Shown piece after piece: positions 2,368 to 54,262 of a stretch of 64,000 nt of DNA. The DNA lies in the sequence record KM657822. One strand, written 5' to 3'. This DNA comes from Escherichia phage vB_EcoM-VpaE1. Below the pieces are notes generated by a model. That model did not search any database, was not told the origin of the DNA, and saw nothing but the letters and a program-made list of their open reading frames with translations. A program made the translations under genes and the position numbers. Numbering within the stretch: position 1 is the stretch's first letter; each line of letters opens with the position of its first letter.

Positions 2368-2448
2368 AGTGTTTGACAAGGGGCTTCAAAACCCCTTAAA
2401 ATAGCATCACAAAATGATTTATTAACTAACAAGAGAGAGAGTAATAAG

Positions 2449-3558
2449 ATGACTACTAAAACTAAAGCACAGATTGACGCAGAAATTTACAAACTGGTTA
2501 AAGAAGGTAAGCTGACTAAAACAGCTATTGCACAGAAATTTAATACTTCAACCCGTTCAGTCGGTCGTGCTGTAGAGCGTCATGAAGCAACCTTAAAAGG
2601 GAATAAGAAGGCAACTTCTACACCAGCTACGAAGACTTTGAAACAAGTTGCTAAGACTTTTAAAAAGAAAGCTGGCAAACCAGTTGAAAAGGTTGTTAAA
2701 GATGCTGTACAGAAAGCTCCAGTAAATAAACTGCATGAAGCTATGCAGAAAGATGACAAGATTGAGTACATGATTACTGGTGACTCTGTAATTATGACTT
2801 ACGGTTCAGAGTCTGAAATTGTTGAATCTACTCATCCGAACTATCAAGAGATTGTAGTTCATGTTGTGAAAGGTGAGTTTAAGAAAGCCTTTGAACTGAT
2901 GAACATTCGTAAGTCTATCGAAAACTTCACTCAGGGTGCTATCACAATCAAAGGCGACAAACTATTCTACGGTGCTGTTGAGATGCGTTCTACTCTGGTT
3001 GACCGTATTCTTCACATGATGAAGACTGGAGATAAAGGTTTCGAACGCCTTGTGATGTTCTTCGAAAAACTGATGGAAAACCCATCTAAAGATTCCGTAG
3101 AACAACTTTGGGGCTTCGTATCTCACCTTGATGTTGAAATTGATGAAGAAGGCTACATCATTGGTTGGAAGAAAGTATCTACTCGTGAAGGCAAGCTGGT
3201 TGACTCCCACACCTACAGAGTACCTAATGATTTGGGTAACATTGTAGAAATGCCACGTTGGATGGTTGATAATAACCGTAACGTGACTTGCTCTCAAGGT
3301 CTTCATGTTGGTGCTTGGGATTATGTTCGTTGTTTCTCAGGTGATACAATTCTGAAGGTTCGTGTCCATCCACGAGACGTTGTATCCGTACCAACTGATT
3401 ACAACGATATGAAGATGCGCTCGTCTCGTTATGAAGTTGCAGCAATCGTTGATAGCCAGCGTAATGTTCTGAAAGCATGGGATGGCAAGACTGAAGCTCT
3501 ACATGTTATCGTTGGTACTGCTGGCGAACTTATTTCTCAGCGTAAACGTGAAATCTAA
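2449..3558 (+). CDS. rIIB: rIIB-like protein
   Basis: Recalled T4 rIIB blocks match (LFYGAVEMRSTLVDRIL...; VRVHPRDVVSVPTDYNDMKMR); adjacent to rIIA. Confidence 0.85.
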   Translation: MTTKTKAQIDAEIYKLVKEGKLTKTAIAQKFNTSTRSVGRAVERHEATLKGNKKATSTPATKTLKQVAKTFKKKAGKPVEKVVKDAVQKAPVNKLHEAMQKDDKIEYMITGDSVIMTYGSESEIVESTHPNYQEIVVHVVKGEFKKAFELMNIRKSIENFTQGAITIKGDKLFYGAVEMRSTLVDRILHMMKTGDKGFERLVMFFEKLMENPSKDSVEQLWGFVSHLDVEIDEEGYIIGWKKVSTREGKLVDSHTYRVPNDLGNIVEMPRWMVDNNRNVTCSQGLHVGAWDYVRCFSGDTILKVRVHPRDVVSVPTDYNDMKMRSSRYEVAAIVDSQRNVLKAWDGKTEALHVIVGTAGELISQRKREI

Positions 3559-3659: not shown

Positions 3660-4208
3660 ATGAAGAAATTGATTCTAGGTTTGTGCTTAATGCTTACAGC
3701 ACACTTATCTTATGCAGTTGACTGCCCAGAGCTATCAATTAGCCAAAAAGTAAACATGTTAAAAGCTTACCAGTATGGTGAGAATAACATGGGTAAAGGT
3801 TGGGGTATAACTCTAGCTGCTATAGCCTTACAAGAGTCAGAGTTAGGTCTGAAGGTAGAGAATAAAAAGACACATGATTATGGTATTTTCCAGAATCACT
3901 TGAAGACTGTTGTAAAGCGTAACAAAATTAGTCCTAATGTGGCTAAAAAGAAACTCTTAAAAGACTTTGACTATGCTGCAAAGGAAACGCACAAAGAGCT
4001 TGAGTTTTGGACAAAGGTACATGGTCAGCCAAAGTCAAAGAAGACTTTACAAAAAGTTTTAGCATCATATAATGCTGGGTATTCGTACAGAATCCCTAAA
4101 GCTAAGAAGTATTCTCAAGATGTCTATAACAACATGAAAGTTATCGCTCAATGTGAATTTGCAACAAACATTTCTAAGGTAAATCATGAAAAAATTAAGA
4201 AAGTCTGA
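3660..4208 (+). CDS. secreted protein, lytic transglycosylase (SLT)-like
   Basis: N-terminal signal peptide MKKLILGLCLMLTAHLSYA; AIALQESELG...YGIFQ resembles the SLT catalytic-Glu region. Confidence 0.4.
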   Translation: MKKLILGLCLMLTAHLSYAVDCPELSISQKVNMLKAYQYGENNMGKGWGITLAAIALQESELGLKVENKKTHDYGIFQNHLKTVVKRNKISPNVAKKKLLKDFDYAAKETHKELEFWTKVHGQPKSKKTLQKVLASYNAGYSYRIPKAKKYSQDVYNNMKVIAQCEFATNISKVNHEKIKKV

Positions 4209-4881
4209 TGAAGTACTGTGTCACGCTTATGACTTACATCCTTATGAGTTAGGTCTTGATTCCTGTGTATGGACTCCAGAACAGTGTAGGGATTTTGAAG
4301 ACACCGCAAGAGAAGTTGTATGTTCACTCGAAGAGTTCCACACATCAGAGCCAATTGTGAATGTTGTAGATAAAGAGACTGGACAAACTATAGGCGTGAG
4401 TCGTGATAGCTTAGTCATAGTCAATAAAGACCTTGTAGAAAAAGGGAATCTCATCTTAGCAGATATTGATGGTGTTCTTACAAATTTTAATCACGAAGAT
4501 TGCTCAACGGAATTGACTGACGGTTCATTCTCGCAGTATACCAATCTTCTTGATTCTGTAAGAGCAAAGCCGACGTATGTTTTCAATATCATTGATGCAA
4601 TTGCTAATCATGCTGCTGTTGGACTCTTGACAGCGAGAGGTGAATCTCAGAGAATACCTACTGAGATGTTTTTAAGGCATAACACAGAGCATGACTACAT
4701 GCTTTTTATGCGTGGTTTTGGGACTAACTCTATAAGTGCAGAAAGTTTGAAAGTGAGGATGATTCAGTCTTGCATTCTGCCTTACTTTAATATAGTATGT
4801 TTTATAGAAGACACAGAGAAGAATGTGCAGAAGGTGAACAGAATCCTTCCACACATTAAAACCATGTTAGTTAAACATTGA
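4186..4881 (+). CDS. hypothetical protein (possible HAD-like phosphatase)
   Basis: ORF with DIDGVL motif resembling HAD motif I; otherwise unrecognised. Confidence 0.3.
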   Translation: MKKLRKSDEVLCHAYDLHPYELGLDSCVWTPEQCRDFEDTAREVVCSLEEFHTSEPIVNVVDKETGQTIGVSRDSLVIVNKDLVEKGNLILADIDGVLTNFNHEDCSTELTDGSFSQYTNLLDSVRAKPTYVFNIIDAIANHAAVGLLTARGESQRIPTEMFLRHNTEHDYMLFMRGFGTNSISAESLKVRMIQSCILPYFNIVCFIEDTEKNVQKVNRILPHIKTMLVKH

Positions 4882-4891
4882 GAGAAAACTT

Positions 4892-5356
4892 ATGAACAAT
4901 ATCATTACGGTAGCACTGGACGATACGGTAAACAAATCTGCAATAGTTCGTAAAATGATTCAAGGTAACTTTGAAGGTAAAATTTTTCGTGCTGTTAATG
5001 TAAAAGCTGATGGCAGCATTCGTGAATATCGTGCATTATTGAATGTTAAAAAACACGTAAAAGGTGCTGGTTCAACGACTGCACACAAAGAAAACCTGAT
5101 GACTATCTATGATATGGGTAAGGCTTCAGAGTTAGGTGCTGAAGGTATCGTTAAAGAAGGTGCTCCGTATCGCTCTTTCAATCTGGAAACTACTCTTATG
5201 CTTTCCTTTACAAGTGGTTCTAAAACAATCACTTATCTCTTTACTGATGCTGCAACGGTATCTGCTATTAAGGATAGCACTGTCAAAGCTGGCGTAGTTG
5301 CTGCTGCAAAAGCTTCTTCGATGGCTGCGAATATCCTTGCTAAAGTCCTCGGTTAA
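4892..5356 (+). CDS. hypothetical protein
   Basis: ORF with upstream RBS; followed by terminator. Confidence 0.5.
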   Translation: MNNIITVALDDTVNKSAIVRKMIQGNFEGKIFRAVNVKADGSIREYRALLNVKKHVKGAGSTTAHKENLMTIYDMGKASELGAEGIVKEGAPYRSFNLETTLMLSFTSGSKTITYLFTDAATVSAIKDSTVKAGVVAAAKASSMAANILAKVLG

Positions 5357-5368
5357 GGTTAAGATACA

Positions 5369-5389
5369 GGCTCCTTCGGGAGCCTTTTT
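5369..5389 (+). terminator. intrinsic terminator
   Basis: Hairpin ggctccttcgggagcc followed by T5. Confidence 0.7.
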
Positions 5390-5408
5390 CATTTTAGGAG
5401 ATTGTTAA

Positions 5409-5756
5409 ATGACATTTAAAGAGTTCTGTCAAGCTACTTTCATAATTGTTTTCTTAGTTGGTGCAGGTGTCTGGGGAGGATACTCTTACAGAGACTATCA
5501 AGTTGCTGAAACTGAGCTAAACAATCAAAAGCTCATAAGTGTTGCTAAAGATGCTTATCAGGAAGGATTAGTCACACTGAGCACCAATTACAAAAATGAT
5601 TTGAAAGATGTGCTTGCTAAGAATAAGCATACAAAAGAGGTACTAACATATGAAAAAACTAAGCCAGAGTTTTATAATGTTTGTGTTACTGATAACTATG
5701 TCAGGGTGTTCAACGAACAAAGTGAACAGTACATTCAAAAACTCCCAAGTAAGTGA
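5409..5756 (+). CDS. candidate i-spanin (Rz-like)
   Basis: N-terminal TM segment then helical periplasmic-type region; overlapped at 3' end by a lipoprotein ORF in another frame. Confidence 0.4.
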   Translation: MTFKEFCQATFIIVFLVGAGVWGGYSYRDYQVAETELNNQKLISVAKDAYQEGLVTLSTNYKNDLKDVLAKNKHTKEVLTYEKTKPEFYNVCVTDNYVRVFNEQSEQYIQKLPSK

Positions 5757-5919
5757 GAGCGATAAGTACACTCAAGAAGAGTCACGGTATATCATCAAAG
5801 GTAACACAGGCAGTGATGTAGCAGCAGCCCTTGAGTTCTATCGTGACGGCTTTTACCAGTGTACAATCAAAGCTAATAACCTTATTGACATGATTTTATT
5901 AGGGAATAAGCAGCAATGA
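5650..5919 (+). CDS. candidate o-spanin (Rz1-like lipoprotein)
   Basis: Signal peptide with lipobox LITMSGC; start embedded in 3' end of preceding ORF, the classic Rz/Rz1 arrangement. Confidence 0.4.
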   Translation: MKKLSQSFIMFVLLITMSGCSTNKVNSTFKNSQVSESDKYTQEESRYIIKGNTGSDVAAALEFYRDGFYQCTIKANNLIDMILLGNKQQ

Positions 5920-6185
5920 CAGAGAATCAAGATACTTTCTATGTAGAAGGTTACTTACTGTTACCACGACCAAAAGAAACTTATATGCGAATTGATTTCT
6001 CACCAACCATTATGGATAATGTGATGTGCCATATCTTTATGCAAGGTGTCACAGCACAACTTAAGCATGTTGGCAAAGAGTGCAAAATAAAGGTTGACAC
6101 TCATCCAGAAATCAAAGAGAATCACTACACATGGTTCTTACCAGACTCTAAAGAAATCTTAGCAGTTCTTAAAACGAGGAAATGA
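5916..6185 (+). CDS. hypothetical protein
   Basis: ORF in tightly packed same-strand gene series. Confidence 0.4.
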   Translation: MTENQDTFYVEGYLLLPRPKETYMRIDFSPTIMDNVMCHIFMQGVTAQLKHVGKECKIKVDTHPEIKENHYTWFLPDSKEILAVLKTRK

Positions 6186-6496
6186 TTATGCAATTCCAGC
6201 CAACAAATCGTGGATTTTCTTATGCAGAATTTAAAGATGCTAAAGGGGAAATTTGTACTTTACAAGAGAGTTCATCATACGAACCATGTATCTGGTTAGG
6301 TGCTAAAGAGGTCTCTGTTCAGTACCTAGATAATGGCTGGAAAACACTTGATATTCCAGCATTAGTAGGCAAAGATTTTGTAGGTAACCAAAGAATGAAA
6401 CTCAATCAAGAACAGGTAAAAGAACTGTTGCCGTACCTTCAATACTTTGCTGAAAATGGTGAATTACCAACAGAGGAACTTACAAATGCAGATTAA
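6182..6496 (+). CDS. hypothetical protein
   Basis: ORF, start overlaps previous stop (ATGA). Confidence 0.45.
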   Translation: MIMQFQPTNRGFSYAEFKDAKGEICTLQESSSYEPCIWLGAKEVSVQYLDNGWKTLDIPALVGKDFVGNQRMKLNQEQVKELLPYLQYFAENGELPTEELTNAD

Positions 6497-6812
6497 TGGA
6501 AGAGACTTTGTAGCCGTTTACTACGAGAACAATAAAGAAGTTGGTGTAGCACAAGTAACTTATGGTAATGGTAAGTGGTTATACGGAACAATCGCAGTAG
6601 TTGGAACAAGAAGTGATACAAAAACTTTTAAAGATTGTGTTGACCTTCTTGAAGAATCCATCCACAATCATTGGTGTCTGATATGGATGACCGACAACGA
6701 AGTGATAGAACGCTTCAAAAAGATTGGTATCAACATTGATAGTATTGAGCATGTTGATTTATATGAACTAACTGAGAAGGTAAACTATGAAAGTAATACT
6801 GGCCAGAGATAA
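6486..6812 (+). CDS. hypothetical protein
   Basis: ORF; start moved to ATG at 6486 preceded by gaggaa RBS. Confidence 0.4.
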   Translation: MQINGRDFVAVYYENNKEVGVAQVTYGNGKWLYGTIAVVGTRSDTKTFKDCVDLLEESIHNHWCLIWMTDNEVIERFKKIGINIDSIEHVDLYELTEKVNYESNTGQR

Positions 6813-28402: not shown

Positions 28403-28960
28403 ATGAGATATTTGAAGTATGCTTCATGGATTTTCCTAGCTTTACTAGAACCATTTGCAGCAACCCTAGCAGTCATCTTAGCACCTTTCGTAGTTCCATT
28501 CTACAGTGAGAAGAAAGGACATCTACCTTTTGGATTCAGATGGATGGAGACCTATGACAACCCAATTGATGGTGATGAAGGCCACGTTAAAAGATGGGCT
28601 AAGATTAGAAAGATTGGTAAGCTGGGTGTCTACATGCAGAGAGTTGGATGGCTCTGGAGAAACAAAGCTTATAACTTCTCTTACCATGTATTAGGAAGAG
28701 ATGTAAAAGATGTTACTAAGTGGAAAGGTAATATCAACGTAAGTTCTAACCCTGAAGATAATCAGACTGGTTATCTCCTAATGTGGAACAGTAATGCTTG
28801 GGGATTATTCGCTTTTATCCCATCAATTAAAGTCTTTGGTAAACAGTTTTACTGGAGAATTTATGTTGGGTGGAAACTTAAAAGTGTTGTCCCAGAAGAA
28901 AGAGCATTCTCAAGGGAAAGAGTTATGTTGGCATTCTTTATTCATCCACTGAGAAAGTAA
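28403..28960 (+). CDS. hypothetical membrane protein encoded inside tRNA cluster
   Basis: 185-aa ORF with N-terminal hydrophobic segment, Trp-rich; no tRNA overlap. Confidence 0.5.
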   Translation: MRYLKYASWIFLALLEPFAATLAVILAPFVVPFYSEKKGHLPFGFRWMETYDNPIDGDEGHVKRWAKIRKIGKLGVYMQRVGWLWRNKAYNFSYHVLGRDVKDVTKWKGNINVSSNPEDNQTGYLLMWNSNAWGLFAFIPSIKVFGKQFYWRIYVGWKLKSVVPEERAFSRERVMLAFFIHPLRK

Positions 28961-53890: not shown

Positions 53891-54262
53891 ATGAAGTGGC
53901 TAGAGGAAGCTTTTAAAAACAATATTGGTGCAATTGTTGTTGGTATTTTTAGTGTTATTGGGATGTATACCACCATGCAAGTTTCAAGTGGTAAGCAAGA
54001 AGTGTCTATCACAACAAAGTTACAGCAGCTAGATAATTATTCCAAAAGTAATTATTCAGCTATTCGTGATTTACAGTCTGACATGAGACTGCTTCAGTTA
54101 GGGATGGAGAACCAGAAAGTCCAGTTAGAGAATGTTAAGGGAGAGAACGCAAAACTTACTAAGACTCTTGATAAATTCTCTGATAGCGTGAACAATCTGG
54201 CTCAGTCAGTATCAGCCCTCCAAGCTATTACTGAAAAGAACACAAAGAATACTGAAAAGTAA
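53891..54262 (+). CDS. membrane-anchored coiled-coil protein (lysis-associated candidate)
   Basis: N-terminal TM then coiled-coil. Confidence 0.35.
   Translation: MKWLEEAFKNNIGAIVVGIFSVIGMYTTMQVSSGKQEVSITTKLQQLDNYSKSNYSAIRDLQSDMRLLQLGMENQKVQLENVKGENAKLTKTLDKFSDSVNNLAQSVSALQAITEKNTKNTEK

Follow-up and report, generated by a model that had tools for sequence, protein, structure and literature searches.

A predicted overlapped two-component spanin pair in a Felixounavirus genome

[quoted passage not shown] The two frames lie on the same strand, the o-spanin ORF being in frame +1 relative to the i-spanin ORF, and each is preceded by its own Shine-Dalgarno sequence, that of the o-spanin lying within the i-spanin coding sequence. 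In the first-pass annotation the pair had been described as embedded, a term for pairs in which, as with lambda Rz/Rz1, the first gene contains the whole of the lipoprotein gene. We found instead that the two ORFs have 107 nt in common and that the lipoprotein ORF runs a further 163 nt past the i-spanin stop, so the pair is overlapped, not embedded, both the shared stretch and the extension past the stop fitting the definition of the overlapped class given by Kongari et al. 2018 (PMC6139136). What can be retained from that annotation is the arrangement itself, namely a TM-anchored ORF overlapped in another frame by a lipoprotein ORF, which appear here as an N-terminal hydrophobic segment and a lipobox-bearing +1-frame ORF.

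Table 1. Positions of the spanin pair and of the other features discussed, in window coordinates
Feature	Position	Strand	Description	Basis
Muralytic-like gene	3660..4208	+	182 aa	
Polynucleotide kinase gene (pnk)	4186..4881	+		
Gene upstream of the hairpin	4892..5356			
Terminator-like hairpin	5368..5394	+	AGGCTCC-TTCG-GGAGCCT and T-run	Terminator scan; terminator at the equivalent place in the Mijalis GenBank record
i-spanin Shine-Dalgarno AGGAG	5397..5401	+	7 nt before ATG	Sequence; also in the table of Kongari et al. 2018
Predicted i-spanin gene	5409..5756	+	115 aa; stop included in coordinates	ORF list, hydropathy, PHROG 1152
o-spanin Shine-Dalgarno GAGGT	5636..5640	+	9 nt before ATG at 5650	Sequence; also in the table of Kongari et al. 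2018
Predicted o-spanin gene	5650..5919	+	89-aa precursor; stop included	ORF list, lipobox rule
Dual-coding overlap	5650..5756	+	107 nt read in two frames	From coordinates
Segment for o-spanin signal peptide and lipobox	5650-5715		66 nt	
Segment for i-spanin motif E82-E103	5652-5717		66 nt	
Next ORF	5916..6185	+	89 aa	PHROG 4391 (unknown function)
Soluble endolysin gene	20474..20938	-	T4-type lysozyme, 154 aa	Pfam PF00959 (Phage_lysozyme) E = 9e-41; PHROG 7 endolysin E = 1e-57
First gene labelled holin elsewhere	28403..28960	+	185 aa, one N-terminal TMD	Pfam DUF7338 E = 5e-61
Second gene labelled holin elsewhere	53891..54262	+	123 aa, N-terminal TMD, helical tail	

The 115-aa predicted i-spanin has a lone hydrophobic segment, FCQATFIIVFLVGAGVWGG, at its N terminus (residues ~6-27; Kyte-Doolittle 19-residue mean 1.75) and none elsewhere, and the remaining 88 residues (28-115) make up a polar tail with one cysteine, the putative periplasmic domain. 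The protein therefore has a single N-terminal TM domain and most of its chain would lie in the periplasm, as in a two-component spanin; since the TM helix is flanked by neutral charge on either side, the N-in/C-out topology itself is one that we infer. In a profile search the protein was matched by PHROG 1152, 'Rz-like spanin', at E = 1e-41. A Pfam scan of the pair at E <= 0.1 returned no Rz or Rz1, only sub-threshold matches to the unrelated SH3b_T, NAGLU_N and DUF6567; the table of Kongari et al. 2018 gives the Felix O1 i-spanin as lacking a predicted coiled coil. When the i-spanins of distant lineages were aligned, G24 within the TM helix, E82, N90, C92, Y97 and N102 proved invariant, and these residues define a C-terminal motif, EKxxPxFxNxCxxxxYxxxFNE (E82-E103). 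An AlphaFold2 model made from the single i-spanin sequence reached a mean pLDDT of 46.9, too poor for use.

The precursor of the predicted o-spanin begins with MKKLSQSFIMFVLLITMSGC and carries the lipoprotein signal MKKLSQSFIMFVLLITMSG↓C (the arrow marks the cleavage site), which fits a PROSITE PS51257-type rule: K/R stands in the N-region, a hydrophobic core follows, the Cys is residue 20 and the +2 residue is Ser. The signal peptide would comprise residues 1-19, with the lipobox TMSG↓C20, and leave a mature form of 70 aa. A Ser, not an Asp, after the lipobox Cys is the pattern of outer-membrane sorting known as the '+2 rule', and the predicted signal-peptidase-II signal of the o-spanin has no Asp at this position. 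We applied the lipobox rule to all candidate starts of the 64-kb window (n = 1183, six frames, minimum ORF length 40 aa), and only the o-spanin start passed, which argues that the lipoprotein signal is not a chance pattern. The LITMSGC lipobox proposed in the first reading of this DNA is accordingly confirmed as a match to the rule and as unique in the window; its strict form, TMSG↓C, has Met at -3 and departs from the classical L-x-x-C, a variant allowed by the broader rule and by the curation of Kongari et al. 2018.

The mature 70-residue o-spanin contains no proline at all and one further cysteine, Cys71. Across lineages L4, C20, G54, C71, N76 and L78 are invariant in the o-spanin alignment, with S21 and T22 nearly so, and each partner therefore keeps one putative periplasmic cysteine (i-spanin C92 and o-spanin C71) that is invariant in five lineages. 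Periplasmic cysteines for intermolecular disulfides are a general requirement of spanins (Kongari et al. 2018), and the conserved pair of residues predicted here fits that requirement. An AlphaFold2 model of the o-spanin, built from an alignment of 8 close homologues, had a mean pLDDT of 46.7, too low to be used; in NCBIfam the protein gave sub-threshold matches only, to the N termini of unrelated lipoproteins, for which the signal peptide alone is responsible. The conserved elements of the two proteins meet within the overlap, where the same 66 nt encode E82-E103, the most strongly conserved part of the i-spanin, in one frame and, in the second frame, the signal peptide of the o-spanin with its lipobox. 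This co-encoding is kept in relatives at ~30% identity.

Neither protein differs from its Felix O1 counterpart, p014 for the i-spanin and p015 for the o-spanin (100% identity), and the pair is in fact already catalogued. In their supplementary tables Kongari et al. 2018 enter Felix01 as 'ovl', with the i-spanin at 5330-5678, the o-spanin at 5571-5841, a 107-nt overlap, the lipobox TMSG, a 19-aa signal peptide, a 70-aa mature form and one periplasmic cysteine in each protein, and in the paper itself both proteins are placed in the 'JH2' overlapped i-/o-spanin families together with JH2, wV8, Moogle, Mushroom and UAB_Phi87, the i-spanin family also taking in the phiEco32/NJ01 podophages. Through its identity to the Felix01 entries the pair of the window belongs to both families. 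Proteins, overlap length, ribosome-binding sites, TMSG↓C lipobox, signal length and mature length are all equal between the window and Felix O1, and differences are found at the nucleotide level only, the surrounding region having 96.7% identity over 1.8 kb. Matches to these 1.8 kb around the pair are found in 256 phage records, with nucleotide identity reaching 98.3%, and come nearly all from Felixounavirus and relatives, UAB_Phi87, Felix O1 and Escherichia phage dune included; by these matches the window is a Felixounavirus genome. Moreover, the pair is annotated as i-spanin and o-spanin in GenBank for dune, finno, Mijalis, GEC_vB_BS and others, RefSeq names Felix O1 p014 'Rz-like spanin', and the Mijalis genome announcement describes a spanin complex that is overlapping and bimolecular. 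What is known from the literature and GenBank thus already includes the pair with its overlapped architecture, and also the scattering of lysis genes in Felix O1-like phages, and the discovery value of our analysis is small; the spanins were recognisable from raw sequence alone, and the architectural label is corrected from embedded to overlapped. The JH2 spanin family can be described as proline-free in its o-spanin.

Searches for more distant relatives gave the family a wider setting. A tblastn search gave 349 phage records for the o-spanin and 400 for the i-spanin, every match covering at least 80% of the query, and the pair recurs with its overlapped layout in five lineages at 26-35% identity: other Ounavirinae (Erwinia and Hafnia Kolesnikvirus), Kuravirus podophages (SU10), Proteus Gorganvirus (Isfahan), Klebsiella phage e270.1 and a P2-like Yersinia phage (YenM324). 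The adjacent, overlapping layout was kept in all 10 of the relatives that we examined. A protein homologue search with the o-spanin found no relative below 72% identity, with many shortened gene calls of 68-73 aa among its matches, and an exhaustive phmmer search against 1.84 billion representatives gave 5 matches, including one spurious (a 604-aa repeat protein) and one genuine distant o-spanin with the lipobox LVSG↓C. Profile searches of both spanin families against PDB sequences gave chance-level matches only (E >= 0.13), and we found no solved spanin structure applicable to the JH2 family in the literature.

In the window the pair lies outside a lysis cassette, the endolysin gene being 14.6 kb off on the other strand, whereas in three distant lineages the homologous pair lies directly downstream of holin and endolysin genes. 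In Proteus phage Isfahan these are a PHROG 198 holin and a lysozyme-like gene (best match PHROG 1259, baseplate hub/tail lysozyme, with weaker endolysin matches), in Klebsiella phage e270.1 a PHROG 24402 holin and an endolysin-type gene of PHROG 315, and in Yersinia phage YenM324 a PHROG 175 holin and an endolysin-type peptidase. Since three different holin and endolysin families precede one and the same spanin family, it is the spanin role that this family appears to occupy, and we regard the lysis-cassette position of the homologues as strong contextual evidence for that role.

Taken together, these comparisons suggest that the two ORFs encode a two-component spanin of a Felix O1-type myophage, of the class delineated by Summer 2007 and Kongari et al. 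2018, an assignment to which we give a probability of about 0.9. Of the initial designation as an Rz/Rz1-like spanin pair, the functional part is carried by PHROG 1152, GenBank, the Kongari curation and the relatives; the lambda likeness is reduced to topology, as neither protein matches the Pfam Rz or Rz1 families. One alternative would make the lipoprotein an early outer-membrane lipoprotein with another job, such as receptor masking or superinfection exclusion, and the TM protein an unrelated neighbour whose overlap reflects dense packing. Lipoproteins with such functions include T5 Llp and the phage Cor proteins. An early-type region (rIIA, rIIB, polynucleotide kinase and small ORFs) with the endolysin far off would suit one, and a mature lipoprotein that lacks a proline-rich region, a TM protein that lacks a predicted coiled coil in Kongari's table and a literature in which we found no experiment on the JH2 spanin family, its lysis role included, are all compatible with it. 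Against it, the two genes co-travel in overlapped layout through five unrelated phage lineages, fill the spanin slot after holin and endolysin in three of them, and keep one invariant periplasmic cysteine per protein, matching the spanin disulfide requirement; furthermore the experimentally confirmed spanins of T4 also lie in an early-type region, beside the polynucleotide kinase gene. We therefore consider an exclusion lipoprotein very unlikely at this locus.

That both frames of the predicted spanin pair are translated is suggested by the pattern of substitutions across the 511-nt region, which we compared in six Ounavirinae sequences (the window, dune, Felix O1, Sf17, Mijalis and SUSP2). 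The i-spanin-only part (241 nt) has 79 variable sites (33%), 50 of which fall at codon position 3, with a synonymous to non-synonymous ratio of 58:28, and the o-spanin-only part (163 nt) has 57 (35%), with 39 at codon position 3 and a ratio of 47:25. In the 107-nt overlap we counted 24 variable sites (22%), with no position-3 bias in either frame and none synonymous in both. This fits what would be expected if both frames were translated and under purifying selection, with the overlap doubly constrained. The further idea that the 115-aa ORF is the sole gene, and the 89-aa ORF a chance frame with a fortuitous lipobox-like string, could appeal to phages in which the latter is unannotated or given an internal-ATG start (SUSP2, SPARTY, Isfahan, e270.1, dune and Sf17), to its many shortened database copies and to one comparative paper that gives the i-spanin only in one phage, but such omissions are a known gene-caller bias for overlapped o-spanins (Kongari et al. 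2018), the frame is preceded by a GAGGT ribosome-binding site of its own, no other ORF of comparable size covers 163 of its 270 nt, and these show the position-3 and synonymous excess just given, and the idea is ruled out, in our view with next to no residual likelihood, by that codon-position pattern, by the uniqueness of the lipobox among the 1183 starts and by the conservation of the ORF, whose homologues at ~30% identity retain signal peptide, C20, C71 and C-terminal motif.

The state of the public annotation of the o-spanin gene deserves a remark of its own. In dune (locus 2399..2620) and Sf17 (locus 2573..2770) the gene is started at an internal ATG, with loss of the signal peptide, in SUSP2, Hafnia phage SPARTY, Proteus phage Isfahan and Klebsiella phage e270.1 it is unannotated, and many metagenomic gene calls are shortened to 68-73 aa. 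Overlapped o-spanins are missed through gene-caller bias (Kongari et al. 2018), and we attribute the missing and mis-started annotations to this disfavour of overlapped genes; many deposited genomes still omit or mis-start the o-spanin gene.

Within the window the pair stands in an early-type block of rIIA, rIIB, polynucleotide kinase and small ORFs, and is separated from the gene upstream by a terminator-like hairpin of 7 pairs (5 of them G-C) with a TTCG loop, which ends ~15 nt before the i-spanin start codon. A scan for sigma-70-like promoters was not enriched over shuffles and placed no site between hairpin and i-spanin start, and the T4-type late promoter TATAAATA has no copy near the pair and one in the whole window, below chance expectation. 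With a hairpin and no promoter-like site ahead of the i-spanin, the pair would be transcribed either by read-through or from a promoter of a type missed by the scan. An Rfam search of positions 4800-6600 gave one sub-threshold chance match, over the terminator hairpin. On its downstream side the o-spanin stop is overlapped by the ATG of the next ORF (ATGA), which suggests that the spanin pair may be translationally coupled to a run of small early-type genes.

The likeness to lambda Rz/Rz1 consists in the combination of a type II inner-membrane protein with a small +1-frame outer-membrane lipoprotein, in cysteines in the periplasmic parts of both partners, and in a presumed common role, the disruption of the outer membrane once the wall has been degraded. 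However, Rz1 lies wholly within Rz whereas the JH2-type pair is overlapped, has no Pfam Rz/Rz1 match and lies outside a lysis cassette; moreover, Rz1 depends on a penta-proline stretch (Kongari et al. 2018) where the mature o-spanin here is free of proline, and the i-spanin here is without a predicted coiled coil. As judged from these sequence comparisons the pair resembles lambda Rz/Rz1 in topology only and is outside the Rz/Rz1 sequence families.

In gene placement there is a parallel with T4, where pseT.3 and pseT.2, which encode the spanins, lie at a distance from e and t (Kongari et al. 2018). In both phages the spanin genes are unlinked to endolysin and holin and lie in an early-type region, and in both they are linked to pnk: T4 has pseT.3, pseT.2, pseT.1 and pseT (134002..135781), and the window has, in the reverse order, pnk, one ORF, i-spanin and o-spanin. 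This linkage involves spanins that have no detectable homology and may be coincidence. The T4 genes differ in being separated, not overlapped, and in their cysteines, as the T4 i-spanin has none in its periplasmic part and the o-spanin two, against one invariant Cys per protein here. In BLASTP comparisons with PseT.3/PseT.2 the i-spanin gave no alignment and the o-spanin aligned at the lipobox region only (E = 0.06), and hhalign returned probabilities of 1% and 13.5%, which leaves the pair outside the T4 sequence families. Since the T4 spanin genes are unlinked, linkage to the endolysin is not obligatory for spanins. The first-pass annotation had correctly placed a lysozyme gene some 15 kb away, and this gene lies on the opposite strand, with 14,555 nt between it and the pair's end; the presentation of this distance as an oddity does not stand, as for Felix O1-like phages scattered lysis genes are the norm in print (genome papers of Moogle and Meda), and T4 has them too.

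How such a pair would act can be proposed by analogy with lambda Rz/Rz1 and T4 PseT.3/PseT.2, the model of a complex across the periplasm being drawn from these systems (Kongari et al. 2018 and references therein), on which essentially all of the experimental spanin work has been done, that is on lambda Rz/Rz1 together with the T4 complementation of those authors. The i-spanin would sit in the inner membrane with its N terminus inside and its C terminus in the periplasm, and the o-spanin would be lipidated on Cys20, cleaved and Lol-sorted to the inner leaflet of the outer membrane. Binding between their periplasmic parts would follow, with the i-spanin motif E82-E103 and residues ~54-83 of the o-spanin, in its C-terminal half, as the probable contact sites, which we propose because they are conserved. 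The complexes would be covalently stabilised through i-spanin C92 and o-spanin C71 as disulfide-linked homodimers and would span the periplasm through the peptidoglycan mesh, being kept inactive as long as the wall is intact. Once endolysin set free by the holin has degraded the wall, the complexes would be released to fuse the inner and outer membranes, and this fusion would remove the final barrier to phage release.

One can go further and speculate that the JH2-type spanins are a mechanistically distinct fusion machine, in which a motif-made contact, a motif locked by co-encoding and a dosage set by read-through come together. On this proposal the contact between the spanins may be made by EKxxPxFxNxCxxxxYxxxFNE in place of a proline-rich region or coiled coil, the i-spanin motif may be evolutionarily locked by being co-encoded with the o-spanin signal peptide and lipobox over 66 nt, and spanin dosage might be set by terminator read-through, given a pair that lies behind a hairpin in an early-type operon. 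As a joint reading we consider this unlikely.

Several other genes of the window bear on lysis by annotation or by domain content. [quoted passage not shown] The second, whose product of 123 aa combines an N-terminal TMD with a helical tail, is called holin in BPS15Q2, Mordin, Sf13 and SUSP2. Finally, a muralytic-like gene lies 1.2 kb upstream of the spanin pair, nearer than the canonical endolysin. Its putatively exported 182-aa product begins with a Sec-type signal peptide, MKKLILGLCLMLTAHLSYA↓VD, is named 'putative lysin' in dune and Sf17, and has a weak, sub-threshold match to the SLT transglycosylase family (PF01464, E = 9.5e-4, 19.2 bits against a cut-off of 21.3 bits).
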